DNA of 64,000 nt from an uncultured Pseudomonadales bacterium (GCA_964429015.1 CAYSAM010000002.1:25158-89157), one strand, 5' to 3'. Shown: positions 429-57,318, counted from the first letter of the stretch. The notes: generated by a model from the sequence alone, not told the origin. A program made the numbers and translations.

Positions 429-471
429 TAATTAATACTATCAAAACCCCCAGTCATCTACCATCTACCAT

Positions 472-759
472 CTACGATCTATTATCCCCTTCCTGCTTTA
501 GGCTTTTCACTTTCCACATAAACATTTTTGCTTTACTCCTAGCATTAGAATCTATCACAAAACTTTTTGCCTTTTCCAAAATTTCTCTAGGTGTGTTTTT
601 TGCCATGCGCATATATATAGGAGTATGTGCCGTATCATCCAAAGCCACAGCTAGGCGATAAGCATAATCCTGAAACTCTCTACTAATTCTTTTTTGCTTC
701 TCCTCATCTAGCTCATATCTATCCAACACGTTTATTAGTTTTGTAAATCCTGTATCCAT
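472..759 (-). CDS. Hypothetical small protein; 3' end overlaps a 7-nt tandem microrepeat
   Basis: 95-aa ORF with no recognisable motif. The C-terminal codons (DNRS*) are encoded by the CATCTACCATCTACGATCT repeat. Confidence 0.3.
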   Translation of the reverse strand: MDTGFTKLINVLDRYELDEEKQKRISREFQDYAYRLAVALDDTAHTPIYMRMAKNTPREILEKAKSFVIDSNARSKAKMFMWKVKSLKQEGDNRS

Positions 760-810
760 ATTGCCAATTATATTTTATTTCTCTAGTCTTTATAATGAAC
801 ATGCCCTCCT

Positions 811-2622
811 ATGAAAATCAAAAATCTTAATCTTGCTAACTTAAAAAAATTCCTCAAAACTTACACCTCTACCATAGCTCTCGCTTGGGCAACCAACAAA
901 AAATACTTTCTCTTTATTACCCTTGCTGGTGCCTTAGAGGGATTATTGGTATATCCAGAACTTTTAATCACCAAAAACATTACTGACAACGTTCTCAAAG
1001 GCATTAGTACCTCAAATTACACAGACCCACTAAGAATAATCATCACTCTTACCTTAATCACCATTATTATCAATCAAATTCAGCAACTAATTTACGATTA
1101 TGCCGACGTTTACTCCAATACTCTCTCCGGATTAATCAAGGAAACCATTAATATCAACATTAGTCGCAAAATTAACTCTCTCCCTGTTTCTCAAGCAGAA
1201 AATCCAGAAATAAGAAATACTTTCCAAAAAGTCCAAGATGCCTCTGGCACTGCTGTCTGGGCTATCACCACCCCACTTAGTACTTTTCCTACCATTTTTT
1301 TCGGCCTAATTAGCTCTGCAATTCTTATTTTCAAATTTAACTTTTTAATTACCATACCCGCCATTTTATTCGCCTTACCTCGTATTAGCTTTGGTATAAA
1401 AAGAACTGCAGCTTGGCGCGCAATAAGAAACAAGTACTCATCCATGTGGAGAATTTGGGGTGCCCTAGACGATTTCGCCAACAAAGGCCGCTACTTATAC
1501 GAAAACAAAATACTAGGCCACGTCAACACCCTCCTCAATCGTCGCCTCAAGCTTACCATCCAGTACTTCAAAGAAACCGAAAAACACAAACTAAAGTACA
1601 GTAAGATGCAACGTCTTTACTCTGCCCCTTTGATTATTTTCGAAAATAGCACCAAATTATATTTATTTTTTCTAGCCATGACCAAGGCTATGAGTTTAGG
1701 AACTGCTCAAGCCACCAACTCTTCCATCAATCGTTTTATTAATTACATAAGTAGACTAATTAGAGAAACCAGCGATCTTTACCAAAATTACACTTTTATT
1801 AACGACTACGAAAACTTTATCAATCTGGCCGACGAAGAGTCAACCGGAATTAACATTGACCAACAAATTCAAACAGGTCTTGTTTTCAAAAACGTTTGGT
1901 TCAAATATCAAAGCTCACCAGACTGGAATTTAAAAAACCTATCATTCAACATAAATCCCACAGAAAACATCGCCATCGTCGGTGAAAATGGAGCAGGCAA
2001 AACAACCCTCATAAAACTTATCTGTCGCTTTTACAAACCCCAAAAAGGCCAAATTACTTTAAACGGAATAGATATCTACGACTACGATCTCGCCTCATAC
2101 AGACAAGCTATTGCTGCCCTCTTTCAAGATTTTGCCCAATATCCTTTTTCTACAAAAGACAATATCCATTTTGGTGACGTCAAGAAAAAACTAAGAATGA
2201 AAGATATCAAAAAAGCTGCCAAGTATACAGACATGCAACACTTTATCGAAAAACTGCCTCTAAAATACAACAATCCCTTAGACAAAGAATTTGCCAAAGG
2301 TATAGAGCCTAGCAAGGGGCAATGGCAAAGAATCGCCCTGTCTAGAACTTTGTATAGAGATGCCCATATTGTTATCTTAGACGAACCTACAAGCAACGTA
2401 GACCCCGAATCCGAAGAAAAAATCTTTGAGTCGGTGATGAAGATTGATAAAGACAAAATGATCTTCCTAGTTTCACACCGTTTTAGCACCGTAAGAAAGG
2501 CAGACAAAATTCTAGTAATAGAACAAGGCGTTTTAGTGGAAGAAGGAAAACACGACAAACTCATGAAAAACAAATCTCGCTACTACGAACTCTTTAATCT
2601 ACAAGCTCAAAGCTACCAATAG
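811..2622 (+). CDS. ABC transporter, fused permease/ATP-binding protein (exporter type)
   Basis: N-terminal multi-TM domain. Walker A GENGAGKTTL, ABC signature and Walker B (SKGQWQRIALSRTLYRDAHIVILDEPTSNVD), H-loop LVSHR. Confidence 0.85.
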   Translation: MKIKNLNLANLKKFLKTYTSTIALAWATNKKYFLFITLAGALEGLLVYPELLITKNITDNVLKGISTSNYTDPLRIIITLTLITIIINQIQQLIYDYADVYSNTLSGLIKETININISRKINSLPVSQAENPEIRNTFQKVQDASGTAVWAITTPLSTFPTIFFGLISSAILIFKFNFLITIPAILFALPRISFGIKRTAAWRAIRNKYSSMWRIWGALDDFANKGRYLYENKILGHVNTLLNRRLKLTIQYFKETEKHKLKYSKMQRLYSAPLIIFENSTKLYLFFLAMTKAMSLGTAQATNSSINRFINYISRLIRETSDLYQNYTFINDYENFINLADEESTGINIDQQIQTGLVFKNVWFKYQSSPDWNLKNLSFNINPTENIAIVGENGAGKTTLIKLICRFYKPQKGQITLNGIDIYDYDLASYRQAIAALFQDFAQYPFSTKDNIHFGDVKKKLRMKDIKKAAKYTDMQHFIEKLPLKYNNPLDKEFAKGIEPSKGQWQRIALSRTLYRDAHIVILDEPTSNVDPESEEKIFESVMKIDKDKMIFLVSHRFSTVRKADKILVIEQGVLVEEGKHDKLMKNKSRYYELFNLQAQSYQ

Positions 2623-3120
2623 CTCGTCACAGGCCTCATCTAGCAAGTCAGCAATCTCCTCTTGTTCTTCTGTAGTGAAACGAGACAAAACATAGTCAGA
2701 CCCACTTCCCCCAAAACTATTTTTATCTCTATTGTTTATACCAACACGTAGTCTCAAAAAGTCTTTTCCTCCCAAGTATTGTTCAACCGAATTAACTCCA
2801 TTATGCACTTTGGGACCAACCCCCTTTTGAATCTTGTACTCCCCAAAATCAATATCCAAATCATCATGTACCACTACCACATCGCTTACACTAAGTTTGT
2901 AAAAGTCGCAAATTTTTCTTACCGCTCGTCCCGATTCATTCATAAAAGTAGTTGGTTTACAAAGTAACATATCGCCCACTTTGCATATTTCTGCCTCAAA
3001 CTTACTATCAGGTCTAGCAATCTGCCCAGCAAGTAGCTTGTCAACAGCCATAAACCCCACGTTATGTCGGGTGTTCACATATTCTTTGCCTATATTTCCT
3101 AGTCCCACAATTAGTTTCAT
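2599..3120 (-). CDS. pth: Peptidyl-tRNA hydrolase
   Basis: MKLIVGLGNIGKEYVNTRHNVGFMAVDKL is the canonical Pth N-terminus. The start is trimmed to the internal Met (M17), because the longer ORF overlaps the divergent GT2 gene. Confidence 0.85.
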   Translation of the reverse strand: MKLIVGLGNIGKEYVNTRHNVGFMAVDKLLAGQIARPDSKFEAEICKVGDMLLCKPTTFMNESGRAVRKICDFYKLSVSDVVVVHDDLDIDFGEYKIQKGVGPKVHNGVNSVEQYLGGKDFLRLRVGINNRDKNSFGGSGSDYVLSRFTTEEQEEIADLLDEACDELLVALSL

Positions 3121-3159
3121 CTTTTTGCTATCGTAATATACAATTGATTTTATCATTCT

Positions 3160-4011
3160 ATGAACCAAAGACCATTTTTCTCTATCATTATCCCGGCTCT
3201 CAACGAGGAAAAATACCTCCCCAAATTACTCAATGATCTCGCCAAACAAACCTACCAAGACTTCGAGGTTATCGTTGTCGACGGAAATTCAGATGATCAA
3301 ACCTCCACAAAAGCAAAGGAGTTTTCCAAAGACATCTCACTTCTAAAAGTCTTAACTTCCCCCGAAAGAAACGTTTCCGTCCAAAGAAATATGGGGGCCA
3401 AAACATCTCAAGGAGAGTATCTTATTTTTAGTGATGCCGACAACCGCCTTCCCAAATATTTTTTAGAAGGTATTCACTATCAGTTAATGTTCAAACCAAC
3501 AGATGTTTTTACTTGCTGGGTCCTCCCCGAAACCAACAACCAAAAGGATAAAACCATAGCAACCAGCCTCAACCTACTATTAGAAGCGGGCCTACTATCA
3601 AAAAACCCCAACGCTCTTGGTGCTATGATTGGATGCAAGAAATCAGTTTTCAAAAAAACAACCGGATTTGATCCAAAAATTGGCTTTGCAGAAGATGCTG
3701 ATTTCGTAAGAAGAACATATAAAGAAGGTTATTCTTTTAGAGTTATTCACAATCCTCGCTTTATTGTTTCCTTGCGCCGATATCATAGTCACGGAACATT
3801 TAATGTTATTCAAAAATCAGCGTCCCTAATACTAAAATATCTCACCAAACAACCAATTGATCAAAAACGAGAATACCCCATGGGTGGAATGGCTTTCCAA
3901 AAATCATCTGAAGACAACTTGATAAGCAAACTAAACCTTTTCCTCAACACTCCAATCAAAAAGCCAAAAATTCTCGATAAACTTCAGTCACTATTAGAAC
4001 TAGAAGACTAA
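3160..4011 (+). CDS. Glycosyltransferase family 2
   Basis: FSIIIPALNEEKYLPKLL...VIVVDGNSDDQT and a DAD motif (FSDADN), the typical GT-A fold N-terminus. Confidence 0.8.
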   Translation: MNQRPFFSIIIPALNEEKYLPKLLNDLAKQTYQDFEVIVVDGNSDDQTSTKAKEFSKDISLLKVLTSPERNVSVQRNMGAKTSQGEYLIFSDADNRLPKYFLEGIHYQLMFKPTDVFTCWVLPETNNQKDKTIATSLNLLLEAGLLSKNPNALGAMIGCKKSVFKKTTGFDPKIGFAEDADFVRRTYKEGYSFRVIHNPRFIVSLRRYHSHGTFNVIQKSASLILKYLTKQPIDQKREYPMGGMAFQKSSEDNLISKLNLFLNTPIKKPKILDKLQSLLELED

Positions 4012-4976
4012 TACTTTCCGAGCAAAAACTGTAGACCTACAAACATCATATATACCCCAATCAAGGTTAAACCCTCCCAGCGCTCAAGTTTACGCTTAGA
4101 CTTTGTAAATACCCAAAACAGTCCAAGTATTAATATCAAAAACAATCCTGAAAGTCCTTTTCCCACAGAAGACTCAAAAGCAATAGGTGAAATCATACCT
4201 ACAATTCCCAATATAAAGGTTGAGTTTACTATTACACTCCCCAAAATATTCCCAAGCAAAAGTGAAGTATCTCTCTTTTCCGAAGCAAATATTGACAATG
4301 TAAGTTCTGGTAAAGTAGTCCCAAAAGAAACAACCAATAACCCAACCCAGTATGCGTTTACCCCAAAGTTTTTTGACAAGCCCAACGCCACATCTATTAG
4401 ATAATGCGAAGCAACAGCCATTGACACCAAAACAAAAAGTAACAGTAAAACATGTCCAATCCACGAACCCACACTTTTAATCTTTGTCTTCACTATTTTA
4501 TGTCTTTTAAGTCTACTATGTTTCAAAACATCTGCTTCTGCCACCATGCTTTTTGCGTAAAACATGTAAGCTATTACCAAAAGTAAACCATCAAGTCTAC
4601 TGAGCCTTCCATCCACCATAAGCAAAAAAGGCAACATCGACATTCCCATGGCCATCCATAAATCTCTACGCAAATAATCTCCCACCACAGGTATAGTCCC
4701 TGCCACAACAGCTGCCCCTCCCACAATCCAGCTTAGGTTTGCAAGATTCGCTCCAATTAAATTTCCAAGTGCAATCTGTGGCTCACCCTTTAAAGCTGAG
4801 GCAATTCCTACTGAAAACTCTGGCAATGACGTCGAAAAACTTACCAAAAAAGTAGCCAACAACAATTTATTTATCTTAACTTCGTGAGCAATTTTTTCAA
4901 AAATATCTACCGCCACACCAGAAAAAAACACCAATATCAAAATCAATAATATTCCCCAAAAAACTTCTCCTAACAT
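4008..4976 (-). CDS. Ca2+/cation antiporter (CaCA, YrbG-like Na+/Ca2+ exchanger)
   Basis: Two alpha-repeat motifs (GNLIGANLANL and GNILGSVIVNSTFILG) in a ~10-TM protein. Confidence 0.75.
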   Translation of the reverse strand: MLGEVFWGILLILILVFFSGVAVDIFEKIAHEVKINKLLLATFLVSFSTSLPEFSVGIASALKGEPQIALGNLIGANLANLSWIVGGAAVVAGTIPVVGDYLRRDLWMAMGMSMLPFLLMVDGRLSRLDGLLLVIAYMFYAKSMVAEADVLKHSRLKRHKIVKTKIKSVGSWIGHVLLLLFVLVSMAVASHYLIDVALGLSKNFGVNAYWVGLLVVSFGTTLPELTLSIFASEKRDTSLLLGNILGSVIVNSTFILGIVGMISPIAFESSVGKGLSGLFLILILGLFWVFTKSKRKLERWEGLTLIGVYMMFVGLQFLLGKY

Positions 4977-5647: not shown

Positions 5648-5722
5648 AGACGACAACATCTGTAATCTGTAATCTGTAACCTGTAATCTGTGATCTGTAA
5701 TCGATCTACGATCTACGATCTA
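5648..5722. repeat. Tandem 7-nt microrepeat array (CTGTAAT / CTACGAT units) between dedA and the ligase gene
   Basis: tctgtaatctgtaatctgtaacctgtaatctgtgatctgtaatcgatctacgatctacgatct read directly. The same unit family recurs at 453-481, 6655-6690, 22886-22925, 48593-48624, 51041-51072, 54464-54500 and 57281-57306. Confidence 0.8.
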
Positions 5723-7465
5723 AATCATTATATTCCCCGATATCTTCGCAATTCTCAACACTTCCTCCCAAGTCGTTGCTTGCTCAGATGCCTTGTCATC
5801 TCTAAATCGAACAAGCCTGGGAAACCGTAGAGCTAATCCTCCAGAGTGAGAAGGGCTTTTGGTAACCTCGTCTGCTGCAATCTCCACCACCACTTTAGGG
5901 CTCACCCACACATCGGGAGCCAAGCTTCCTTCTACCAAACAATTTTCTGGTTTTGTCACAACCTCCAAATTATCCAATCTTTTTCTAAGCTCCGTAAACT
6001 CTATGTCAGTTAAGCCAGTTCCAATCTTAGCAATCGACACCCACAAGTCACCCTTTTTAAGCCCGGCCAAAAATGCTCCCATACCAAATCCTGCTCGCTT
6101 CCCCCTACCGTAGTAATAACCCAAAACCACAAGGTCAAAAGTATCCGCCAATTTCCCACTTGTTCCTTCTGCCTCCTTAATTTTTACCCAGTTCCATCCT
6201 TGTCTACCAGGCAAATACTCACCACTCCACATCTTCATTACCGCCCCCTCATATCCCTCCTCCAAAAATCGAGTATGAATTTCTTCTAGTTCTACTGGGT
6301 CATTAGTTTTAACAAATTCATCCACTACCAAAACATCATTTTTCAAAATTATTTTCTTTAGTATCTCTCTCCTTTCAAAGTAGTTTTTCGAAAGCAAGCT
6401 TTCTCCGTTACAATACAAAACATCAAAAACAAAAAACCTCAAGGGAACACTAGCTGCGGCTTCCTCTACCCCATGCTTTCGCTTTCTTGTTATTGTCTCC
6501 TGAAAATTTAATATTCTTCCAGTCTTAGGATCATAACCAACAGCCTCGCAGTCCAAAATTAGTTCATCTGCATTTGTATACTCGGCCATTTTTTTAAGTT
6601 CCGGAAACATAGCACTACTCTCCTCCAAATTTCTAGTGAATGATTTCACCATACGTCTGTCATCTGTAATCTGTAAACTGTGATCTACATTTCTATCAAA
6701 ATGTATCTGCACTCTTGTCCCATCATACTTTGGTTCAATCGCTACTTCCCCCATATTTTTCACTATCTCTTCATATGTGTTAAGTCTTTGACATAGAGCT
6801 GGTACTATTGGAACGCCCACTTTTACTTTAATTTTTTTTAGTCCGTCCAAGCCCGCCTCTTTAAAAGCTCTCACTATCTCACCGGAGTCCGGATAAAGCT
6901 GATAAACTCTGTCTAGCTCTTTTCGCAAAGACTTATTTCCACTTTCTATCTGCGACAATGCATCAAAAACCGTCTTTTCCGAAAATCCCAAACGCAGCTT
7001 ACCCATCACCATTCGTACTACAAACTTTCCCTCCAAAAACGATAATTTGTTTATAAGCTTCGATAGTTTATTTACTTTCAACTCTTGGCTACCAGTACCC
7101 TCAAAGTAAGCTATTTCACTCAAGTCATCAAATACTTCATCCAAACTAATACTCTGTATTTTTTTGTCTTCTCCAAAATTTACTACCACTTCACCCAAAT
7201 CTCCAACTCGTTTATATTCTTTTTCCACCTCTTCAGTACTTTTGCCAAAGGCCAAGGCCACAGATCGAATCACCATCTTAGCTGCCATACTAAATTCTCT
7301 GTTATCAAATATCGGCCCCAACAAGCCCTGAGTCAAATAGATACCTTTGGCTGCCTCACCAACCTCAAATTTCCCAATAAGATCAGCAAGCACCACAGTA
7401 ATCTCTAGTCGAGATGAAATCTTTTCTAGTTTTTCTAAGTACTCTGCAAATTCTCTAAACAACAT
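5720..7465 (-). CDS. ATP-dependent DNA ligase (Lig1/archaeal-eukaryal type, DBD + adenylation + OB domains)
   Basis: Motif I KYDGTRVQIH (KxDGxR). 581 aa with an N-terminal DNA-binding domain, and EGAVMK (motif IV-like) further on. Confidence 0.85.
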   Translation of the reverse strand: MLFREFAEYLEKLEKISSRLEITVVLADLIGKFEVGEAAKGIYLTQGLLGPIFDNREFSMAAKMVIRSVALAFGKSTEEVEKEYKRVGDLGEVVVNFGEDKKIQSISLDEVFDDLSEIAYFEGTGSQELKVNKLSKLINKLSFLEGKFVVRMVMGKLRLGFSEKTVFDALSQIESGNKSLRKELDRVYQLYPDSGEIVRAFKEAGLDGLKKIKVKVGVPIVPALCQRLNTYEEIVKNMGEVAIEPKYDGTRVQIHFDRNVDHSLQITDDRRMVKSFTRNLEESSAMFPELKKMAEYTNADELILDCEAVGYDPKTGRILNFQETITRKRKHGVEEAAASVPLRFFVFDVLYCNGESLLSKNYFERREILKKIILKNDVLVVDEFVKTNDPVELEEIHTRFLEEGYEGAVMKMWSGEYLPGRQGWNWVKIKEAEGTSGKLADTFDLVVLGYYYGRGKRAGFGMGAFLAGLKKGDLWVSIAKIGTGLTDIEFTELRKRLDNLEVVTKPENCLVEGSLAPDVWVSPKVVVEIAADEVTKSPSHSGGLALRFPRLVRFRDDKASEQATTWEEVLRIAKISGNIMI

Positions 7466-11371: not shown

Positions 11372-11412
11372 CGTCATTGCGAGGCGCGACTTTAGGTTGG
11401 CCGCGGCAATCC
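11372..11412. repeat. Dispersed imperfect-palindrome element (TCGTCATTGCGAG...CCGCGGCAATC), copy 1
   Basis: ccgtcattgcgaggcgcgactttaggttggccgcggcaatcc: ATTGCGAG and CGGCAAT arms are reverse complements around a GC-rich core. Copies at about 43168-43205, 48564-48592, 53313-53350 and 56430-56503. Confidence 0.75.
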
Positions 11413-14775: not shown

Positions 14776-15639
14776 TCAAATCTGACAATCTGGGCAGTAA
14801 AAAGTTCCCCTGCCCCCAAGTTTAACTTTTACAATCTTTCCACCACAATTTTTACAGGGCTGCCCCTCTCGCTTATAAGTTAAAAAGAAATTCTGATATG
14901 TTCCCCCCAAACCCTTGGTGTCTACATAATTTGCCGCGCTAGCACCCCCACACTCAATTCCCAAATTAATTACAAACCTCACAGCCTCATAAAGCTTTTT
15001 GGCTTCCTCTTTAGTCAATTCACACGCCTTTCTAGTAGGTAATATTTTTGCCATATTCAAAGCATCATTAGCATAGATATTTCCAATCCCTCCCATCAAC
15101 AGCTGATCAAGTAACACTATTTTTATTGGTCTTTTGTTTTTAATGAGTACCTTTTCAAAGTAATCCAAACTAAACTCCTCATCTACTACATCCGGCACTT
15201 TTTTAATCTGTAAACTGTTATCTGCCAGCTGTAAACTTACTACTCTCATCCACCCAAAAGCTCTCATATCATTAAAAAACAAAGCAGAATTGTCATCAAA
15301 AACAATCTCTATTCTTGTGTGCTTGCTAGGTAAACTATTAACCCAATCAGCACTAGGATGCCCACCCACAATTCTCTTTCCCTCACTTTGAGTTCTCTCT
15401 ATGTATATCAACTGCCCAGTCATCTTTAGGTGAACCTGAACAATAAAATCTGCATTTTCTAGCTCTATCTCCACCATCTTTGCTACTCTTCCAATTCTTT
15501 TAATTTTTCCACCCACAAGAATCTCTTTGTCACCAACGAAATTTTTATCCCTATAAACCTTCACCGTACAAATCACTCTCCCAACCAAAAAATTATTTAA
15601 CTGCCTTGCAATAGTTTCTACTTCTGGTAACTCTGGCAT
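14776..15639 (-). CDS. mutM: Formamidopyrimidine-DNA glycosylase (Fpg/MutM)
   Basis: N-terminal MPELPEVET (catalytic Pro2/Glu3). C-terminal zinc finger CKNCGGKIVKVKLGGRGTFYCPDCQ. Confidence 0.85.
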   Translation of the reverse strand: MPELPEVETIARQLNNFLVGRVICTVKVYRDKNFVGDKEILVGGKIKRIGRVAKMVEIELENADFIVQVHLKMTGQLIYIERTQSEGKRIVGGHPSADWVNSLPSKHTRIEIVFDDNSALFFNDMRAFGWMRVVSLQLADNSLQIKKVPDVVDEEFSLDYFEKVLIKNKRPIKIVLLDQLLMGGIGNIYANDALNMAKILPTRKACELTKEEAKKLYEAVRFVINLGIECGGASAANYVDTKGLGGTYQNFFLTYKREGQPCKNCGGKIVKVKLGGRGTFYCPDCQI

Positions 15640-43113: not shown

Positions 43114-43286
43114 ATGTCAGTTTCCTCTCTCTCTCTCTTTGTCAACACTTTTCTTGAAACCAAGTATCGTCATTGCGAGGCGCGACTTTAGGTCGGCCGC
43201 GATGCTTCTCAGCAGAGCTAAATGTCGAAATTAGTTTTTGTTGAAGACAAAAATAACTTTCGACCAATCTATGCAAATAAACACTC

Positions 43287-44711: not shown

Positions 44712-45854
44712 ATGACAGATCTAAACAAGCTTAAAATTGCCACCATAGCAACTTCATCTCCATTTTGGATAGCAATAATTGTCCTATATCTAAACTCAAG
44801 AGGAATATCTCTGTCAGACGTTTTCAAACTAATAAGTTTTTACCAAATATCAGTGGTTGCTCTAGAGTATCCCACAGGAGTGATTGGAGACCACTTTTCC
44901 CACAAAACATCTGTAACTTTAGGATATCTGTTTTCATCTATCGGGATGCTACTGGCAACATTTCAACTTAGTATTCTTTTTTATTACTTAATTATGGTAA
45001 TTATCGCTCTAGGTGTATCACTTGTTTCGGGAAGCAACACCGCTTTGTTACACAAACTTTCAGAGGACTTTAAAAAAGACTCCGCCTCCCTAAAAAGTAC
45101 AACTATGGCATGGTCACTTATAGCTCTGTCCGTTGGAGGGTTAATCGGAAAATATAGCCTTGTAGCACCAATTTACCTTACCAGCGCTGCTTTCATGGTC
45201 GGTTTTATAACAATGACCTCAATCAACCAATCAGACCACAACAAAAAATCTGGAAATGTTTTTAGCAAAGCAAAAGAAGGAATAATTCACATAAAGAATA
45301 ACAACACCCTAATATCCATTTTAATTCTCAACGCACTAGTATCTGGCATTTTTCTTAGCACAAAGTGGTTCTACAACCCCTTCTTTGAAACTCTAGGAAT
45401 AAATATTTCTTGGTGGGGAATACTTATTAGTCTTGCATCACTTTTAAGTATTGCTGGTGTATTTTTATACAAAAAATTCACAAGCAATAAAATCATAGAG
45501 TATTACGTCTTTCTTATTATTCTATTTGGGCTTACATCCCTACTAAATAGTCGATTTTCAATCGTATCGCTTCCATCACTTATGCTTGCCCATCTTGTAG
45601 GTTCGGGGTACATACAAACATTTTTTGAAGTTAACATCAATAGTCACTTATCAGACTCAACTAGAGCAAGCGTCTTATCTTTCGGCAGTTTACTTATCAG
45701 ATTAACATCCTCAATTTACATTTACGCAACAGGTCTAATCATTGCCAATTACAACCTGTCACATCTATTTATTTTTACAGCAGCAATACTAACAATAATC
45801 GGTTTACCGTTTGTCTTCAAATTAAACTCCAAATTTGATTCTTTGAGTTCTTGA
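44712..45854 (+). CDS. MFS-type transporter
   Basis: 12 predicted TM helices in two 6-TM halves. The C-terminal codons are supplied by the GAGTTCTT tandem repeat. Confidence 0.65.
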   Translation: MTDLNKLKIATIATSSPFWIAIIVLYLNSRGISLSDVFKLISFYQISVVALEYPTGVIGDHFSHKTSVTLGYLFSSIGMLLATFQLSILFYYLIMVIIALGVSLVSGSNTALLHKLSEDFKKDSASLKSTTMAWSLIALSVGGLIGKYSLVAPIYLTSAAFMVGFITMTSINQSDHNKKSGNVFSKAKEGIIHIKNNNTLISILILNALVSGIFLSTKWFYNPFFETLGINISWWGILISLASLLSIAGVFLYKKFTSNKIIEYYVFLIILFGLTSLLNSRFSIVSLPSLMLAHLVGSGYIQTFFEVNINSHLSDSTRASVLSFGSLLIRLTSSIYIYATGLIIANYNLSHLFIFTAAILTIIGLPFVFKLNSKFDSLSS

Positions 45855-45883
45855 GTTCTTGAGTTCTTGAGTTCTTGAGTTCT
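45835..45883. repeat. Tandem 8-nt microrepeat (GAGTTCTT) x about 6, overlapping the MFS stop codon
   Basis: ttctttgagttcttgagttcttgagttcttgagttcttgagttctt read directly. Related arrays at 40793-40860, 47464-47497, 53234-53266 and 55025-55060. Confidence 0.8.
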
Positions 45884-45887
45884 TATA

Positions 45888-46190
45888 TCATTCTATTCCC
45901 AGTTCTGCCTTAACCTCTTCCGAAATAAGCTCCTTACTCCATGGTGGATCCCATACTAGTTCCACATGTAATGACTTCACCTCCTCTATTTCTCCAACTG
46001 CTTTTTTAACCTCACTGTCAATTACAGGAGCCAAAGGGCAACCTGGGCTCGTCAAGGTTAAATCTATCTCCGCTTCTCCTTTTTCAAACCTTACGTCATA
46101 TATAAGCCCCAAAGATACAATATCAATGCCCAGTTCCGGATCTATAACTTTTTTCAACGCTTCCCTAATTTTTTCTTCTACATTATTCAT
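45888..46190 (-). CDS. DUF59/MIP18-family Fe-S cluster assembly protein (SufT/PaaD-like)
   Basis: VIDPELGIDIVSLGLIYDV and the conserved Cys in TSPGCPLA. Confidence 0.65.
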   Translation of the reverse strand: MNNVEEKIREALKKVIDPELGIDIVSLGLIYDVRFEKGEAEIDLTLTSPGCPLAPVIDSEVKKAVGEIEEVKSLHVELVWDPPWSKELISEEVKAELGIE

Positions 46191-46906: not shown

Positions 46907-47623
46907 TTACTTAACCAAAAAATAAGCAATTCCAAATAAAAACAAAGCCATCACCATTCTCAGTTGTTTGTTGTATTTATGTTCCCATTCTTTCATCTCC
47001 ACCACTTTTTTGCCTCCTGCCATAACGAGCAATATAACAAAAATAGGCAAAATAAATATTAAGTTATAGTACAAAAAGTAAAACAGCACCTGCCACATAG
47101 GCAGACCAGATCTCGCCAAGTAAGAGGTTGTTCCTATATAGACAGGTAACATACAAGGAGTCGAAAACGCTGTAGTCAAAACACCTACTAACACCGCCAT
47201 CGAAGGACCTGCCTTTGCCAAAATTCCATTTATTTTTTCATACCCCTTACTGCTCATTCTTAAGTGAACAGGTAAGTGATCCCAAAACACATCTTTAAAC
47301 TGAATAAGTCCTGCTATTACCAAAATTCCCGCCATTAAATATTTAAATACACTAGCAATCCATAGTCTTTGCAAGTAAAAAGCAAGTCCATAAAAAAACA
47401 ATCCCAATACTAAATATGTAACAAACACACTCACCAAATACACCAAACCCTCCCTCAAAACCCTTGAATTCTTGATTCCTTGAGTTTTTGAGTTCTTTTT
47501 TGGATCGTTCTGCGATCCAAAAACTAAAATATACCCCAAAAAAGTAATCATCATCCCTATTCCACAGGGGTTCAACCCATTTACTAGTGCCGCCCCCGTC
47601 AAAGCCCAAATATTTATTGTCAT
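46907..47623 (-). CDS. ccdA: CcdA/DsbD-like transmembrane thiol-disulfide transporter, carrying an in-frame microrepeat insertion
   Basis: TM Cys residues in LNPCGIGMM and STPCMLPVY. The loop GSQNDPKKNSKTQGIKNSRVLREG is encoded by the GGATCGCAGAACGATCC palindrome plus the CAAGAACTCAAG-type repeat. Confidence 0.7.
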   Translation of the reverse strand: MTINIWALTGAALVNGLNPCGIGMMITFLGYILVFGSQNDPKKNSKTQGIKNSRVLREGLVYLVSVFVTYLVLGLFFYGLAFYLQRLWIASVFKYLMAGILVIAGLIQFKDVFWDHLPVHLRMSSKGYEKINGILAKAGPSMAVLVGVLTTAFSTPCMLPVYIGTTSYLARSGLPMWQVLFYFLYYNLIFILPIFVILLVMAGGKKVVEMKEWEHKYNKQLRMVMALFLFGIAYFLVK

Positions 47624-48338: not shown

Positions 48339-48758
48339 TTAATTTTCATTATTCATCACTTTTAATAACGCTCTATAAGCCAAGGTTGCACACTTCATTC
48401 TACCTGCATTTATCTCTCCCCCCATCATTTCTACAATTCCCTCTTCTCCAATTTTTTCAACGTCCACAAAAGTCATTCCAATCACTTTCTCCGAAAGCAT
48501 ACTAGCTGCCGCTGTCGATATTGCACACCCCACCCCTCGCCACCTCACCTCCTTGATCACAACGTCGTCATTGCGAGCAGCGCGCGGCAATCCATCTCCT
48601 CTACCATCTACCATCGACGATCTTTTAAGCTTAATTTGCACTTGCACAACATCCCCACAACTAGAGTTAGACTCGTTTATAGTTAAGTCAGCGTCCTCCA
48701 TCTCCCCAAAATTTCTAGGGTTCTTGTAGTGATCAATTATTTCATCCTTGTAATCCAT
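48339..48758 (-). CDS. sufU: SufU/IscU-type Fe-S scaffold protein with a ~20-aa in-frame insertion derived from the dispersed palindromic element
   Basis: HYKNPRNFG, CGDVVQVQIKL and GVGCAISTAAASM are scaffold motifs. Between them, KRSSMVDGRGDGLPRAARNDDV is encoded by the cgtcgtcattgcgagcagcgcgcggcaatc + ccatctaccatc repeat at 48564-48624. Confidence 0.7.
   Translation of the reverse strand: MDYKDEIIDHYKNPRNFGEMEDADLTINESNSSCGDVVQVQIKLKRSSMVDGRGDGLPRAARNDDVVIKEVRWRGVGCAISTAAASMLSEKVIGMTFVDVEKIGEEGIVEMMGGEINAGRMKCATLAYRALLKVMNNEN
48564..48624. repeat. Palindromic element copy 3 fused to a 7-nt microrepeat, located inside the sufU reading frame
   Basis: cgtcgtcattgcgagcagcgcgcggcaatccatctcctctaccatctaccatcgacgatct read directly. 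Confidence 0.8.
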
Positions 48759-48802: not shown

Positions 48803-49999
48803 TTAATCAATATCTTCTTTGGTATTGTAAACATAAAATGTCGCTCTTACCATCGCCATTACCCCAAAACTAGTAACGAGTGGAGCTGCACAATGTTGAC
48901 CAGATCGCACACAAATTCCAAAACTATTTAGTACTTGCGCCACGTCATGAGAGTGAACTCCTTTAACATTAAAGGCAATCGCCCCACCTCTCTCCTCTGC
49001 ATTCCTCACACCATAAACCTCTACCAACCCTTCTTTTTCTATTACTTCAAATTTTTCCAGTGCATAACCCACTAACTCTTTTTCGTGTTCTCTCACATTG
49101 TCCATTCCTAATTTTTCAAGGTAATCCACTGCTGCCCCCAAACCTATTATCCCCGCAATATCTGGTGTTCCAGCTTCAAACTTATTTGGCAAGTCTGCCC
49201 AAGTTGTATTATCTAGTGTTACTTCACCAATCATGTCACCACCGTACAAAAATGGATCCATTTTATTAAGTAAGTCTTTCTTACCCCAAAGCACTCCAGT
49301 TCCTGTTGGACCCATCATTTTGTGTCCCGAAAAAGCCACAAAATCTACTGGCAGCTTAGTAACATCAAGTTTCATATGGGGCACCATTTGGGACGCATCC
49401 AAAACCACAACCACATCTGGGTTTTTTGCTCTTACTTTTTCTACCAACAACTTAATATCAGGTAGGGTTCCAATTGCATTACTCGCACCTGTCAAAGCAA
49501 ACAATTTCACTTTCCCGTCAGCAGTAAGTCTCTCCAAGCTATCCATATCAATTCTTCCGTCACTATCCACGTCAGCTACTCTAAAACTTCCAAACTTTTC
49601 TTTGCAAAGCACTTGCCAAGGCACAAAATTTGAGTGATGCTCTAGTCTGGTCACCAAAACAGCATCTCCCTCTTTTATATTTTTCTTTCCCCAAGAATAC
49701 ATTACCAGGTTAAGAGATTCACTAGCGTTTCTTGTAAAAATTACTTCTTCAGTACGTGCTCCTATAAATTTAGCCACCTTCTCCCGTGCTTCATCCACCA
49801 TTTTAGTGGACTCAACAGACAGGTCATACACTCCGCGGTGAATATTGGCATTATTGGTTCGGTAAAAGTCATCCATTGCTCGCAACACGCTTTCCGGTTT
49901 CTGGCTTGTAGCACCACTATCCAAAAACACCAAATCCTGTCCCCTAATTTTTCTCTTTAATATTGGAAAATCAGATCGAATCTTTTTTACATCAAACAT
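48803..49999 (-). CDS. sufS: Cysteine desulfurase SufS (class V aminotransferase)
   Basis: PLP-lysine region FSGHKMMGPTGTGVLWG. C-terminal active Cys in RSGQHCAAP. Confidence 0.9.
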   Translation of the reverse strand: MFDVKKIRSDFPILKRKIRGQDLVFLDSGATSQKPESVLRAMDDFYRTNNANIHRGVYDLSVESTKMVDEAREKVAKFIGARTEEVIFTRNASESLNLVMYSWGKKNIKEGDAVLVTRLEHHSNFVPWQVLCKEKFGSFRVADVDSDGRIDMDSLERLTADGKVKLFALTGASNAIGTLPDIKLLVEKVRAKNPDVVVVLDASQMVPHMKLDVTKLPVDFVAFSGHKMMGPTGTGVLWGKKDLLNKMDPFLYGGDMIGEVTLDNTTWADLPNKFEAGTPDIAGIIGLGAAVDYLEKLGMDNVREHEKELVGYALEKFEVIEKEGLVEVYGVRNAEERGGAIAFNVKGVHSHDVAQVLNSFGICVRSGQHCAAPLVTSFGVMAMVRATFYVYNTKEDID

Positions 50000-51030: not shown

Positions 51031-51075
51031 ATGTTTTTATCTGTAACCTACGATCTATCATTTACTATCTAATTT

Positions 51076-52506
51076 CTATCCCACACTCCCTTCCATCTCC
51101 ATGTTTACTAATCTATTCATTTCAATAGCATACTCAAATGGCACCTCTTTCATTACCGGCTCCAAAAATCCATTCACAATCATTCCCTCAGCATCGTGCT
51201 CCGAAAGTCCCCGCGACATCAGGTAAAACAATTGCTCTTCAGACACCCTACTAACTACCGCTTCATGTTCTAGAACTGATCTATTTTCCATAATTTTATT
51301 AGTAGGGTAAGTGTCAGATCGCGAAAGCTCATCCAAAATAAGCGCATCACAAACTACTTTAGAACGCGAATTTATCGCTCCCTTAGCAATGTGTACCAGA
51401 CCTCTATAAGTAGACCTTCCGCCACCCTTACTAATCGACTTAGATAAAATCTGCGAAGTTGTTTCGGGTGCCAAGTGAATCATTTTGGCTCCCGTGTCTT
51501 GATGTTGCCCCGCTCCTGCCCAAGCAATAGAGAGAATTTCACCTTTAGCTTTTCTTCCTACCAAAAGACAGGCAGGATACTTCATGGTAAGTTTGCTTCC
51601 CAAGTTTCCATCTATCCAGCGCATACTTCCTTCTTCTTCTACACGAGCTCTTTTTGTCACCAAGTTATAAACATTTTTATACCAGTTCTGAACCGTGGTG
51701 TACTGCACACTAGCACCTTTCTTTACTATTATTTCTACCACCGCAGCATGAAGTGACCCCGAAGAATAAGCCGGAGCGCTACAACCTTCAATATAATGCA
51801 GTTTGCTTCCCTCATCCGCAATAATCAAAGTTCTTTCAAACTGACCAGCATTTTCACTATTAATTCTAAAATATGTTTGCAAAGGAAGACCTACGTCAAC
51901 ACCCTTAGGAACATAAATAAAAGATCCACCAGACCAAGCTGCACTATTAAGCGCCGCCAGTTTATTGTCCCCAATAGGTATTACACTTCCAAAGTATTTT
52001 TTTACTAACTCTGGATACTGTTTTAAACCCTCATCCATTCCCAAAAACACCACTCCTTTTTTGGCCAAGTTGGCTTTTAGAGATCCGTAAATTACTTCAG
52101 AATCATACTGGCTTTTTACTCCTGCGAGAGCTTCTCTCTCAGCCTGGGGAACTCCAATTTTTTCAAAAGTCGCTTTTACCTCTGCGGGTACATCATCCCA
52201 AGTTTTTCCAGCGTGATCTAGTGGCTTTAAGTAATAAAAAATATTCTGAAAATCAATCGCCGACATATCTCCGCCCCAAGTAGGCATCGGTTTTTCAAAA
52301 AAGATTTTCAAAGCTTTAAGACGAAGTTCCAACATCCATTCTGGTTCATTTTTCATTGCACTTATCTCTCTAATTCTGGCCTCATCCACACCCTTAGTAG
52401 AGCGATATGCATACTTAAAATCATCAGTGTGACCAAGAGAATAAGAGTCACCAATCCCTCCAATGTTATTTACTTCCTCTATTTTCTTTTTAGCAAATCT
52501 ACTCAT
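51076..52506 (-). CDS. sufB: Fe-S cluster assembly protein SufB
   Basis: 476 aa with the conserved SufB C-terminal half (…[15 protein letters not shown]…[12 protein letters not shown]…). Confidence 0.9.
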
Positions 52507-53275
52507 ATTTTTTATATCCAGTTTTACCCAAACTTTCTATTAACTCGGCTCCACCCTCATCAACCACCAAGCCCTTCTTTAAAACAACTACCTTATCCAC
52601 ATTCACCAAATTCAACATTTTTTGGTAATGAGTAATAAGTATCACAGTCATCCCTGTTTCTTTGGACTGCTTATTTATTTCTTCAGCTACAAGGTTCAAG
52701 GCATCAAGGTCCAAGCCACTGTCTGTTTCGTCTAGTATTGCAAGTTTTGGTCGCAAAACTCTCATCTGCAAAATCTCTATCTTCTTTTTCTCACCACCGC
52801 TAAAACCTTCGTTTATTCCACGGGTTAACAGATCATCACTTACTCTTAGTTCTTTTGCGATTTCTTCTACTTGGCGTTTTACATCAATGGCTTTTACCAC
52901 ACCACCCTTTGCTCTCAAGGAAGCTATCAAAACCTCTTTTACTGTTACTCCAGGTACAGAAACAGGATACTGAAAAGCCATAAAAATTCCCTCTTTAGCT
53001 CGTTCATCTGGGGTCATCTCGTTTATTTTCTTACCCATCCACAAAATCTCTCCTTCTGTTATTTCGTAAGCCGGGTTTCCCATCAAAGTGTTAGACAAAG
53101 AAGATTTGCCAGAACCATTTGGTCCCATCAAAGCCACTACTTTTCCAGTTTCTATTTCTATATTCACACCCCTAAGAACTTCTTTTCCTTCTACCCTTAC
53201 CTTCAAATTCTTAATCAAAAGTAATTCCTTATCTTGGGTTCTTGATTCCTTGATTCCTTGAGTTCTATTCGTCAT
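52499..53275 (-). CDS. sufC: Fe-S cluster assembly ATPase SufC
   Basis: Walker [14 protein letters not shown] signature [12 protein letters not shown]. Walker [13 protein letters not shown]-loop ILITHYQ. The start is placed at M16, because upstream codons are encoded by microrepeat and palindromic-element sequence; the alternative start is 53320. Confidence 0.85.
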
Positions 53276-53360
53276 TTTGAATTTTTGATTTTTTATATTT
53301 TGAATTTTTTCTGTCGTCATTGCGAGAAGTGTACTCGCGACGCGGCAATCTATACAAATC

Positions 53361-53790: not shown

Positions 53791-54420
53791 CTAAAACAGC
53801 CCCATCTGCATCTCCGCAGGCTTCTCCTCAACCACTTCTGTAGGGTAACCAAAATCAACTACTATCTCTCGGAACTCATTCCACCTATCCTTAAACTTCA
53901 GTATTCCATTTTTTCTACCGTAGTCATACACCTTCGTTGTCACCTCCACATCCACCTCGCAATATTTTTTAAGATTAGCTAAACTCTCAGAGTCGCCAAG
54001 ATTCCACCACTTTACAGCGTCCAATCCTCCTGCAATTTTTCCTGCACCAATCGTTTCTTTAGCTACACTGTCTAGTTTTACTCTGTGTCCAAAAGATTTT
54101 CTAATCTCCTCCAAAATATCGAAGTGTTTCAATTTAGTAAAGTCACCTTTTGTATACACCCCATTCATCGCTGGATTATCAAACCCAAAAGAGTTATACC
54201 CAATTATTCTGTCCGCCTCCTCAAACCAACTCCACATACTATCAAAGTCACCTTCCCAAAAACTTTTCATTTCACCAGATAATTCATTACCATTTTCATC
54301 TACTTCTCGTCTATAAGCTGACACTATCGATATTCCCAAATCTGCCGGATTGTTTGTACTTATCTCATCAAAAATTTTCTTAGTTTCTATGTCGTAAATC
54401 ACTTCAACTCTTTTTTTCAT
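53791..54420 (-). CDS. RNase H-like 3'-5' exonuclease (DEDD / PolB-exonuclease-like, YprB-type)
   Basis: Motif I YDIETK (DxE). Motif II GYNSFGFD. Motif III YCEVDVEVT. Confidence 0.5.
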   Translation of the reverse strand: MKKRVEVIYDIETKKIFDEISTNNPADLGISIVSAYRREVDENGNELSGEMKSFWEGDFDSMWSWFEEADRIIGYNSFGFDNPAMNGVYTKGDFTKLKHFDILEEIRKSFGHRVKLDSVAKETIGAGKIAGGLDAVKWWNLGDSESLANLKKYCEVDVEVTTKVYDYGRKNGILKFKDRWNEFREIVVDFGYPTEVVEEKPAEMQMGLF

Positions 54421-54497
54421 AGTTCCCCCATTAAACCACTACCTTCCAAAAATGTAAAACTATACTCCACGATCCACGATCTACAAACTACGATCTT

Positions 54498-55007
54498 TTA
54501 TCTCCCGTTCTCCCAAATTCTCATTCTTTTCTTAACCCAAACCCCAAAACCCATTACAGCTATTCCCGCCAACACTCCATAAAGAATATTTTCCCAAACA
54601 CCAGTTTCTGGTAAGGTTGTAACCGCCGATGCCGTCGCTGTTGGGGTTGGGGTTGGCGTGGCTGCAGATGCATTAAATCGTATTGTAAAGGTCAAAATCT
54701 GACTTCCCGAATTAACAGTTATCAAATTATCACCAGTATTCAAAGAACTAGGAGTAAAATTCCAAACCCCACTTGTTGTCGCTGCAATCACCGCACTAGA
54801 TGTTGCGTTTACTTTTACACTTACCATTGCAGCGGGAGTAGCTGTTCCTTCAAGCTGTGGCACTGATCCGGTATAACTGACCAAAGTGTAATCTGCCCCT
54901 ATTGTTGACAAAGTTCCAATCTTTGTCAAAGTAAGGTCATAAGCAAAAACGGGAAAAGCAAACAAAAATGCTCCCAGTATTGTCCATAAAATATTTTTTT
55001 TCCACAT
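54498..55007 (-). CDS. Sortase-anchored surface protein (LPETG cell-wall anchor)
   Basis: Signal peptide MWKKNILWTILGAFLFAFPVFA. C-terminus TTLPETG + hydrophobic helix + KKRMR. Thr/Pro-rich linker ATPTPTPTA. Confidence 0.65.
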   Translation of the reverse strand: MWKKNILWTILGAFLFAFPVFAYDLTLTKIGTLSTIGADYTLVSYTGSVPQLEGTATPAAMVSVKVNATSSAVIAATTSGVWNFTPSSLNTGDNLITVNSGSQILTFTIRFNASAATPTPTPTATASAVTTLPETGVWENILYGVLAGIAVMGFGVWVKKRMRIWENGR

Positions 55008-55068
55008 TTTGATTTTTTGATTTTTTCTTGATTTCTCGAGTTCTTGATTTTTCGAGTTCTATATATAT

Positions 55069-56406: not shown

Positions 56407-56429
56407 ATATATTCAGTCTACCAGAACCA

Positions 56430-56503
56430 GTCGTCGTTGCGAGGAACAACCCGCCCGCAACACTGAAGAGTACTTCTGCGAGCAGGAGTGACGTGGCAAT
56501 CTA
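56430..56503. repeat. Palindromic element, long variant (copy 5)
   Basis: tcgtcgttgcgaggaacaacccgcccgcaacactgaagagtacttctgcgagcaggagtgacgtggcaatc, with the same TCGTCnTTGCGAG...GGCAATC termini. Confidence 0.7.
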
Positions 56504-56522
56504 TATAGATTAGAATGTATTT

Positions 56523-57278
56523 ATGACCTGCCCACAATGTCACGATAGTCTAAATAAACTAGAAGTAAGCACCACCGATGGTCAAGTGAGAAAAATAGAC
56601 GAGTGCTTAAACTGTGGTGGACATTTTTTAGACAATTATCTTGTCAACTTTATTTCAGTCGAAACAGCCCGGAACATCGACTCTGTTCTTCCCAAAAAAC
56701 ACCTCCCCACAGTATCCGAACCAAAATGTTTCCATTGTGGTCAAGTTATGTTTGCAATCTCCGATGACTCCACTCCCAAAACCGTCACTGTCTACAACTG
56801 TCCCAACAACCACGGTGATTTTTTTCCCAAAGGTCAACTCCTCCTTTTCAAAAAAGCTCAAGACGCCAAAATAAACTATCACAAACTCTGGGGAATCCCT
56901 CTCAAAACTGCCTTCTCAGTAATCATTCCCCTTTTTATTATCTTCACCTCAGTTACGGTCCTACCCTCAGTTGTTAAAGAACTCAATCAGAGTACCGAAA
57001 ATCGCGTCAAAGCTTCTGAAATACTTACCGAACCTCTCATTACTCCCATCTCAGACAATCAAGTCCTCATTTCTTTCTCCACCAAAAACAAAGTACCCAC
57101 CAACCTTATTTTTACTTCAGGTATAAACAAAACTTTTACTGTTTCAGAGCAACCAAAAACAAGCCACTTAGTTAGTATCGAAAACCTTCCTCCTGCCACC
57201 ACTTTTAAATACACAATCGTTATAGATCCACAAGGTAAAAATCTCAAAACCTCAGAATACTCCTTCTCTACCCCCTAA
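56523..57278 (+). CDS. Zinc-ribbon membrane protein with a C-terminal FN3-like beta-sandwich domain, hypothetical
   Basis: Two CxxC...CxxC ribbons (CPQCH...CLNCG; CFHCG...CPNNHG), one TM (FSVIIPLFIIFTSVTVL) and a beta-rich tail. Confidence 0.4.
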   Translation: MTCPQCHDSLNKLEVSTTDGQVRKIDECLNCGGHFLDNYLVNFISVETARNIDSVLPKKHLPTVSEPKCFHCGQVMFAISDDSTPKTVTVYNCPNNHGDFFPKGQLLLFKKAQDAKINYHKLWGIPLKTAFSVIIPLFIIFTSVTVLPSVVKELNQSTENRVKASEILTEPLITPISDNQVLISFSTKNKVPTNLIFTSGINKTFTVSEQPKTSHLVSIENLPPATTFKYTIVIDPQGKNLKTSEYSFSTP

Positions 57279-57318
57279 ACTCAACAATCTACGATCTACG
57301 ATCTACTATAATACTCCC

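Follow-up and report, generated by a model that had tools for sequence, protein, structure and literature searches.

Frame-locked heptamer and octamer repeats dispersed over genes and spacers of a Collierbacteria-like bacterium

Heptamer-type repeats dispersed over a genome were first described decades ago, and to our knowledge there is no account of the way in which a single unit spreads to many loci. The closest described systems include: (i) the heptamers of cyanobacteria, reportedly described by Mazel in 1990 as short tandemly repeated repetitive (STRR) sequences, and (ii) the Rickettsia palindromic elements (RPEs), which Ogata is said to have described in 2000 as in-frame selfish insertions in protein genes. 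This report concerns the tandem repeats in a stretch of 64,000 nucleotides (nt) filed under an uncultured Pseudomonadales bacterium (GCA_964429015.1 CAYSAM010000002.1:25158-89157), referred to at its full length as the window. Its arrays belong to two families, with units of 7 nt (family A, heptamers) and 8 nt (family B, octamers), and lie in spacers and, in frame, within housekeeping genes. New here are the locking of a non-triplet unit in frame, at 36 nt, within housekeeping genes, the common phase of the arrays, their strand polarity and the replacement of one family by the other in place. A literature search found no description of AAGAACTC/GAGTTCTT repeats, of tandem repeats in Collierbacteria or of such arrays in the candidate phyla radiation (CPR).

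Long simple sequence repeats (SSRs) with units of 5-11 nt (LSSR5-11; Mrazek 2007, as related in PMC4679880) have heptamers as their commonest unit in prokaryotes, and polymerase slippage is proposed there as their source. Like LSSR5-11 and STRR sequences, the arrays of the window have units of 7-8 nt, within the 5-11-nt range and beyond chance expectation, that are dispersed over many loci of one genome, with heptamers dominant and copy number variable between strains. They differ in residing in a CPR genome of ~1 Mb rather than a large free-living one, in the location of about half of the arrays within housekeeping open reading frames (ORFs), where a non-triplet unit is frame-locked at 36 nt, and in their strict strand polarity and replacement of families at the same sites. 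The TAACTGA repeats of marine Beggiatoaceae, cyanobacteria and Bacteroidetes (MacGregor 2015, PMC4679880), for which a structure-free leader or stand-by role is proposed, are likewise heptamers of scattered phylogeny, with 2-6 copies mostly at gene boundaries, some abutting starts without a Shine-Dalgarno sequence; their stop-bearing orientation ends upstream ORFs and their stop-free orientation lies within ORFs. TAACTGA is oriented with the downstream gene and its intragenic copies are peripheral, whereas here orientation follows GC skew, intragenic copies occupy internal loops and two families replace one another in place. A gene-oriented position upstream of a start codon that lacks a Shine-Dalgarno sequence is found here only for the arrays at 55007-55060 and 51039-51080.

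Like the present arrays, RPEs are short repeated DNA that is inserted in frame into many genes of a reduced genome, at permissive positions on the surface of essential proteins; insertion of this kind into conserved proteins, in frame and where it is tolerated, is indeed seen here. By contrast, RPEs are palindromes of 100-150 bp, while the arrays here are 36-nt tracts, non-palindromic and with zero predicted structure, and the octamer array forms neither a palindrome nor a stem-loop; GC-rich elements of the window with ends CATTGCGAG...GCGGCAATC (see below) are the closer analogue. The tandem repeats of Borgs (bioRxiv 10.1101/2022.05.18.492195) are A-rich on the coding strand, occupy spacers and ORFs, form disordered loops, evolve fast and have flanking partial repeats, all as here; their repeat regions are stated to arise independently of one another. 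The present arrays differ in having the same two non-triplet units (7 and 8 nt) at all loci, with only the whole tract divisible by three, and, because unit families and start phase are shared at all loci, they are not independent. In Haemophilus, an upstream heptamer repeat tunes the expression of HMW1A (PMC8262952). Such phase-variable SSR loci share copy-number change by slippage and a location near promoters with the arrays here, which differ in showing no frame-switching alleles and in affecting housekeeping rather than surface genes.

Two families on one strand

Arrays were detected against shuffled sequence with Tandem Repeats Finder and a separate periodicity scan, and degenerate arrays with a core-based scan. 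The window holds ten period-7 arrays (0.5 expected from shuffles), six of period 8 (0.65 expected) and none of period 9 (0.55 expected). An earlier reading of this DNA (the original prediction) had described two families, located at the boundaries of genes and also, in frame, within coding sequences; both the array and the reading-frame checks bear this out, and all thirteen arrays that it listed were recovered by Tandem Repeats Finder and the periodicity scan. On the plus (+) strand, family A has the units ATCTGTA, ATCTACG, ATCTACC and ATCTGTG; on the minus (-) strand, on which all arrays are described below, these read TACAGAT, CGTAGAT, GGTAGAT and CACAGAT, with GTCAGAT as a further unit and xxxAGAT as the general form. 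The family B unit is GAGTTCTT on the + strand and AAGAACTC on the - strand, with - strand variants AAGGAATC, AAAAACTC and AAGAATTC. Nine family A and five family B loci lie within 57 kb of the window, and 19 family B arrays within 71 kb of Collierbacteria GWB2_45_17.

Relatives at graded distances were obtained as independent assemblies by exact-protein look-ups (loci of other genomes carry the prefix L below); look-ups with 45888-46190 and 57319-58068 gave no match. The assemblies from ENA, JGI, NCBI and Logan carry identical array positions. That the arrays are artefacts of assembly or sequencing, a possibility the original prediction had raised, or chance low-complexity sequence is already refuted, and its probability is next to nil: the same arrays stand at the same positions, with frames kept open, in independent assemblies from four sources, and shuffles yield ~10-20 times fewer period-7 and period-8 arrays than the window. 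Some contigs do stop inside arrays (L222), the one sign in favour of an artefact; thus, the repeats do break assemblies.

The G+C content of the window is 38%, its GC skew is -0.2 to -0.4 along the whole length, and its gene set is typical of CPR bacteria (archaeal-type ATP-dependent ligase, RTPR, beta-CASP nuclease, FtsH and SufBC); the closest named relatives of its ligase are Candidatus Collierbacteria. Its host is a Collierbacteria-like CPR bacterium. Several public metagenome-assembled genomes titled 'uncultured Pseudomonadales bacterium', under CAYTOI01 (L024, L044, L049, L063, L069) and CAZPFY01 (L006, L028), are likewise Collierbacteria-like CPR bacteria and relatives of this host; they have 78-81% nucleotide identity to the window and contain the contigs of ligase hits P0004 and P0003. 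By gene content and nucleotide identity, their Pseudomonadales label looks wrong. Strand asymmetry is unusually strong in this lineage: the skew is strong and uniform over 1-64000 (-0.2 to -0.4 per 4 kb), ORFs of >=100 amino acids (aa) are mostly on the - strand, and related loci have skews of +/-0.2 to 0.4.

All arrays of the window share one orientation relative to the + strand. All 50 octamer chains counted, which come from eight genomes, lie on the locally G-rich strand, as do 12 of 12 heptamer chains. Three arrays are situated between genes of the C-rich strand (window 57281-57307, L043 4447-4497 and L038 5734-5767), and each of them retains the strand orientation and runs antisense to the genes on either side. 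In these three informative cases, orientation tracks GC skew and not the neighbouring genes, which points to a link of polarity with replication rather than transcription. Single copies of the units have no skew beyond base composition. A Chi/KOPS-like polar motif was considered and rejected, as AAGAACTC occurs outside arrays four times on the + (C-rich) strand, opposite to the arrays, and the heptamer skew is as composition predicts. The idea of a primase site was rejected by reasoning: CTG/CTA is on the C-rich strand, and primase uses the G-rich strand (the lagging-strand template).

Frame lock, replacement and length variation

Octamer chains, 60 in number, were taken from the window, from the relatives found by protein look-ups and from Collierbacteria-like and Woesebacteria loci of a genome scan, in which 185,579 species genomes were searched for (AAGAACTC)x3. 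Exactly four units followed by AAGA make up 42 of the 60. Intragenic chains across Collierbacteria are (AAGAACTC)4 + AAGA in 25 of 30 cases, a tract of 36 nt or 12 codons in the same phase, and intergenic chains have 3, 4, 5, 6 or 9 units. The commonest tract length is 36 nt (18 tracts), followed by 35 nt (9 tracts). Tracts start at the first A of the unit in 41 of 55 cases and at the second A in 8 more, and end after AA(G)(A). A tract of the form AAGA(ACTCAAGA)n is 8n+4 nt long, which is a multiple of three only at 12, 36 and 60 nt; the 36-nt lengths are thus accounted for by a frame filter, which does not explain the common phase of all loci. The 'empty' alleles are not empty, for they retain 12 nt, and full and 'empty' alleles are 24 nt apart. 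At 15386-15398 in fpg, the window has AGAGAACTCAAAG, one unit + AAAG that represents a 12-13-nt family B remnant or seed, versus four units + AAAG or AAAA in L004 and L006; the sufC leader of L063 has only AAGAACTCAAGA (1.5 units) versus 4.5 units in the window; and in the 5'-3' exonuclease gene, where an A-rich family B remnant (GAAAAAAATCAAAATGAT) lies at 17286-17303 of the window, L006 has eight more octamer-tract codons. Each of these pairs differs by 24 nt. Insertion with target-site duplication (4-nt AAGA plus an insert of 28 or 32 nt) was rejected, as its net lengths are not multiples of three. In sufS, L001 (3017-3125, 92% identical) has a 16-codon insert with a degenerate octamer tract (IEKTQKLENSKNQNEVRLG), of which the window (49537-49597) has no trace, a presence/absence polymorphism of an intragenic tract.

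The ligase, Fpg, SufU and a CcdA/SfLAP-like protein contain in-frame tracts. Where arrays are placed is explained to a large extent by stop codons. Units of the CGTAGAT type hold TAG in the sense orientation and supply the stops of the ligase and of ORF 472-759, while AAGAACTC and TACAGAT, the units found within genes, have no stop in any sense frame; because of stop codons, intragenic tracts are necessarily sense-oriented. Most of what the original prediction claimed for coding sequences holds: a frame check confirms translation in the ligase (VDHSLQITDDR), the CcdA-like ORF (KKNSKTQGIKNSR) and sufU; the repeats at the 3' ends of the MFS ORF and ORF 472-759 are present, with stops derived from array units; the protein-internal copies preserve frame, as the 36-nt tract in 25 of 30 intragenic octamer arrays illustrates; and the residues at array sites differ in orthologues, so that they are not ordinary conserved sequence. 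Its placement of a translated repeat at the N-terminus of SufC stands only in part. An array is present at that site, but the SufC profile begins at residue 34 of the long ORF, and a TTG codon at 53218, just past the array, has AAGGA 7 nt upstream; the array is thus more probably a 5' leader than protein.

The ligase tract lies eight residues past motif I. In an AlphaFold2 model, residues 258-271 form a loop between strands 250-257 and 272-275, with a predicted local distance difference test (pLDDT) score of <50 at 261-270, and the tract is accordingly modelled as a low-confidence surface loop; ligase orthologues have 3 to 24 residues at this position. The octamer array at 45834-45884 folds at 0 kcal/mol and is thus structure-free, while all 200 shuffles fold at least as well. 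The consequences of the arrays include 12-codon disordered loops in CPR housekeeping proteins, stop codons supplied by repeats, blurred start-codon calls (sufC) and broken assemblies.

At six sites, heptamers in the window (and L003) stand where relatives of ~80-90% identity have octamers. In the ligase loop (6655-6690), a 36-nt heptamer-type segment takes the place of a 36-nt octamer-type segment; the ligase 3' spacer (5648-5724) has octamers AAAAACTC/AAAAAATC in L006-8, and the 3' end of ORF 472-759 (453-490) has octamers in L004 and L006. Site 2 of fpg (15206-15240) holds 39 nt of heptamers in the window and 36 nt of degenerate octamers (KTQKIETEKNQ) in relatives. In L063, the sufU loop has TAGAACTC AAGGAATC AAGGAATC AAGAACTC AAGA at the same codon position, and the sufB-sufD spacer (51039-51080) has octamers. 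The outgroups show the octamer state to be the older one, and L004, at intermediate distance, has heptamers at only one of the six sites. Three of the swaps are at the same codon position within proteins, and independent insertion at merely permissive sites is therefore insufficient; heptamers seemingly form at the site of an octamer array already present, or on top of it. In distant Collierbacteria, heptamers are CTCAGAT-like, equal to the octamer minus one A. Derivation of family A from family B by loss of one base was tried, and the match of CTCAGAT to CTCAAGA(T) at 6 of 7 positions, attained by 4.4% of random heptamers (P ~0.04) and thus barely above chance, is a lead only.

Signs of exchange between loci are found in variant units. 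One order of variants, TAGAACTC AAGGAATC AAGGAATC AAGAACyC AAGAT, is common to the sufC leader of the window, whose cassette reads TAGAACTC AAGGAATC AAGGAATC AAGAACCC AAGAT, and to sufU of L063, and the AAGGAATC variant recurs across Collierbacteria. Each lineage has unit variants of its own. L006, which was fetched independently of repeat content, has AAAAACTC, AAAAAATC and AAAAACCC as its units, and 2 of 15 of them carry G at position 3, versus 12 of 13 in the window. Decay from G to A was rejected as the source of the AAAAACTC units of L006: C-to-T change is seen at 0 of 30 C positions and G is replaced in 13 of 15 units, opposite to the strand skew. As the C positions are untouched, this is not simple decay, and homogenisation is more likely. 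Orthologous intragenic tracts are conserved at least as well as their coding flanks, also in pairs not selected by the scan.

The array at 453-490 has four alleles in six strains of 98.2-99.4% identity (regions of 63, 63, 70, 70, 70 and 91 nt), and every difference in length is a multiple of 7 nt. Over 8.8 kb at 99% identity, the window and L003 have multi-base indels only in two intergenic arrays, apart from a whole-gene insertion; one, at 482, is of +28 nt or four heptamers, and the other, at 5676-5701 in the ligase 3' spacer, is 3+6 units in the window versus six CGTAGAT and two TACAGAT in L003. The total length of this spacer array is nearly constant (66 vs 62 nt), one sub-family having grown and the other shrunk; in L222 (~99% identical) it has at least four CGTAGAT and ends with the contig. 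The window and L003 have the same in-frame ligase tract, degenerate arrays are invariant between strains, and all arrays are invariant in assemblies of 99.7-100% identity. Perfect spacer arrays thus vary among near-identical strains, with a turnover faster than point substitutions accumulate. The original prediction had called for a comparison of copy number in related strains, and length polymorphism is indeed found at 453-490 and in the ligase 3' spacer; its suggestion of contingency or phase variation fares less well, since the intragenic arrays are frame-locked in housekeeping genes (DNA ligase, Fpg, SufU, SufS and 5'-3' exonuclease), with no frameshifted allele in the strains examined, and degenerate arrays are identical at 99.7-100% identity.

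Origin and persistence of the arrays

The reading favoured here, at somewhat better than even probability, is that the arrays are dispersed short tandem repeats of the STRR/LSSR type, tolerated by the genome, that evolve in concert by slippage and by the copying of one array into another, with reading frame and stop codons acting as the filter. In any one array, whole units would be gained or lost through replication slippage, unrestrained in spacers; inside genes, the survivors would be stop-free tracts with a total length divisible by three. Between arrays, ectopic conversion or template switching may copy sequence from locus to locus, which would keep units, unit phase and variant order alike genome-wide and would let a newer heptamer variant overwrite older octamer arrays in place. 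The arrays are probably non-functional, or at most incidentally functional, and persist where harmless; the tolerated, possibly selfish repeat of the original prediction thus fits better than its contingency proposal.

Several points weigh against this reading. Most loci outside the window were chosen by the search for perfect (AAGAACTC)x3, which inflates array perfection. The frame filter does not explain a passage from 12 to 36 nt without a frameshifted intermediate, and such a change in one step, in an essential gene, cannot be simple slippage. For ectopic conversion there is no direct evidence, and the slight homology of heptamers and octamers makes homologous overwriting hard to explain. 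The model does not predict the strict strand polarity, to which arrays flanked by lagging-strand genes also conform (3 of 3). Near-perfect arrays also occur at orthologous sites across ~65-70% nucleotide identity, and such persistence could mean selection on the sequence itself.

In a second reading, the arrays would be functional cis-elements, such as structure-free translation leaders or stand-by sites, or promoter-upstream elements, read as RNA or DNA by a sequence-specific factor with which the unit would co-evolve. Some features agree with this: 55007-55060 abuts an ATG, 51039-51080 ends 10 nt before an ATG without a Shine-Dalgarno sequence, 57281-57307 abuts TATAAT, the octamer array is wholly unstructured, the recurrent AAGGAATC contains the Shine-Dalgarno-like AAGGA, arrays are conserved no less than coding flanks, and spacers retain an array over ~20% divergence despite a change of family. 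Such a role is nevertheless unlikely, as about half of the octamer arrays of Collierbacteria are in loops inside housekeeping ORFs, orientation goes with the DNA strand and not with the adjacent gene, some arrays are at 3' ends and one (45834-45884) separates convergent genes, copy number differs among near-identical strains, and heptamers and octamers are interchangeable at one site. Lower again in probability, and doubtful, is a dedicated strand-specific process of insertion or patch synthesis, which would write tracts of ~36 nt from a short template at recurrent 'addresses', be it a small mobile module or the templated activity of a polymerase, primase or reverse transcriptase, and in which a change of template would bring a change of family at the same sites. 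Defined tract ends and common phase would suit it, as would the 36-nt octamer mode, the equal length of the exchanged ligase segments, the six same-site swaps, unit variants that are lineage-wide and a polarity independent of transcription. By contrast, neither a candidate enzyme nor a template is identified, a frame filter on 8n+4 tracts yields the 36-nt mode too, intergenic arrays have 3-16 units and heptamer arrays 3-9, and the 'empty' alleles hold 12 nt rather than nothing.

Least probable of these biological readings is that of contingency loci, in which unit gain or loss would switch or tune genes at high frequency in the population. It would accommodate the intergenic length polymorphism between ~99% identical strains, the -10-like boxes beside some arrays and the array upstream of an LPXTG surface protein, and HMW1A is a heptamer precedent (PMC8262952). 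Intragenic arrays are locked at 36 nt in housekeeping genes, however, no frameshifted allele and no on/off allele by unit gain or loss in the reading frame is found in the strains compared, arrays are identical in assemblies of 99.7-100% identity, and the array that precedes the LPXTG-protein gene is a stable, degenerate one. For the intragenic copies contingency is thus not supported, for the spacers it is unproven, and there is no sign of switching as rapid as that of contingency loci.

If, as is doubtful, Collierbacteria write templated 7-/8-nt tracts strand-specifically, through a process linked to replication and not to transcription, at recurrent 'addresses' that include loops of essential proteins, with defined tract ends, a typical length of 36 nt and a template change that replaced octamers by heptamers at six sites, bacteria would have a mechanism of templated sequence insertion that was unknown before, and the spread of STRR-type repeats would be explained. 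The lineage offers several handles on repeat spread: its genome is small and very strongly strand-asymmetric, many relatives have been sequenced at graded distances, the intragenic state is a discrete one of 36 nt, and the family replacement at identical sites is dated and directional.

Other genomes, individual arrays and neighbouring genes

Outside Collierbacteria, (AAGAACTC)x3 occurs in Acidobacteriota, Chthoniobacterales, Bacteroidales, Paenibacillus, Planctomycetes and Chloroflexi, often at several loci per genome, and (TAGATCG)x3 in more than 120 metagenome contigs of 23-72% G+C. Among viral contigs, one has octamer arrays and none has (TAGATCG)x3. Matching genomes carry many other 7-/8-nt families side by side, and the cross-phylum matches are read as the general abundance of such repeats and not as a sign that the AAGAACTC/TAGATCG units are special; given ~10^3-10^4 possible classes of unit, and 7-8-nt arrays that are plentiful across phyla, their independent origin is plausible. 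The statement of the original prediction that this is an unusual genome-wide feature therefore needs qualifying: the feature is dispersed over the window, but dispersed heptamer-type repeats are known in other phyla and the same units occur in many unrelated genomes. Dense mixtures of 7-/8-nt families are seen in unrelated genomes and a viral contig (L098, IMGVR_UViG_3300001533_002010; L012; L081; L085), with 13 arrays in 14.5 kb of L098 and nine arrays, made of seven different units, in 8 kb of an Anaerolineaceae locus. In Chthoniobacterales and Acidobacteriota, octamer arrays are followed by a conserved AACCAAyAGTCyCGCGCCGAGGTC, which suggests a larger repeat there.

The family A array at 453-490 (AATAGAT CGTAGAT GGTAGAT GGTAGAT) holds the TAG stop of ORF 472-759 and is upstream of the MFS gene. 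The array at 5648-5724, between the ligase stop and a VTT-domain gene, is a composite of (TAGATCG)x3 out of phase with (ATTACAG-type)x6; the ligase TAG stop falls inside it, and L037 has a GC-rich element at its site. Within the ligase, 6655-6690 reads NVDHSLQITDDR. The core-based scan added the degenerate in-frame array of fpg (15206-15240, SLQLADNSLQI), which the original prediction had not listed. At 22886-22925, CACAGAT x3 and GTCAGAT lie between the stop of a VirD4-like gene and a tRNA-Ile gene. The -10-like boxes follow the arrays at 5648-5724, 22886-22925 and 57281-57307, the last of which (CGTAGAT x3) is between two + strand genes and directly abuts TATAAT, 12 nt before the ATG of 57319. 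The remaining family A arrays of the window include that of sufU (48593-48626, KRSSMVDGRGD), adjoined by a possible octamer remnant, AAGCTTAAAAGA, at 48621-48632; that at 51039-51080, which is degenerate, fills the sufB-sufD spacer and is of equal length in L001 and L002 (92-95% identical); and a degenerate array at 54464-54506 between the LPXTG-protein gene and an RNase H-like gene, identical in L228.

Family B arrays include 40788-40860, which is intergenic and upstream of the gene for a transketolase N-terminal part and consists of 2+2 units around a 33-nt GC-rich insert. The insert (40806-40838, CCCGCGCAAATACACGGGACTCACTCCGTTCGC on the - strand) divides the tract exactly; in ligase homologue P0100, the octamer loop is broken by a comparable GC-rich stretch (KRTQGIKE-PCLPAGRS-RNQ). 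The array at 45834-45884 has five perfect AAGAACTC + AAAGAATC (four perfect units in the L028 orthologue) and encodes, in antisense, the last codons and TGA stop of the + strand MFS ORF. The 36-nt tract of the CcdA/SfLAP-like membrane protein is at 47462-47497, with an orthologous tract in L028. The sufC tract (53232-53309) comprises a unit part at 53232-53266, ending in AAGA, and an A-rich degenerate octamer tail to 53309; a GC-rich element (53318-53360) precedes it. At 55007-55060, a degenerate family B array runs right up to the ATG of the LPXTG-protein gene.

The GC-rich elements are a third dispersed element, imperfect palindromes with conserved ends, with five window copies in the same orientation (11375-11411, 43171-43205, 48563-48596, 53318-53360 and 56435-56470) and one in L037 (7455-7490). 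The copy at 48563-48596 is translated in frame in sufU (GLPRAARNDD) and adjoins the heptamer array, that at 53318-53360 lies between rrf2 and sufC and adjoins octamers, and in Collierbacteria GWB2_45_17 such an element forms the ligase C-terminus, where the window has heptamers. Their predicted hairpins fold no better than shuffles.

A search of the window against Rfam gave two tRNAs and nothing else. The tRNA-Ile (22782-22856, identified with ARAGORN), which has a heptamer array 30 nt upstream, has the anticodon TAT; this anticodon is uncommon for tRNA-Ile in bacteria, where a lysidine-modified CAT is usual. At 4629, in a Na/Ca-exchanger-like gene (4008-4976), L003 and L222 have one base fewer, and the gene is split into ORFs of 133 and 203 aa; as two independent assemblies share the loss, it is a real strain-level frameshift and not an assembly error. 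The same two loci have an extra alpha/beta-hydrolase gene of 271 aa (L003 5724-6539, L222 2563-3378), inserted between genes for a glycosyltransferase and a peptidyl-tRNA hydrolase and absent at 3120-3178 of the window. An RNase H-like/PolB-exo-like gene has a 33-nt in-frame indel (window 54238-54255 vs L100 205-255, 98% identical), in which L100 carries an additional small palindrome (CCCACCGACGCTAAAGCTATGGTGGG...) and no tandem repeat.

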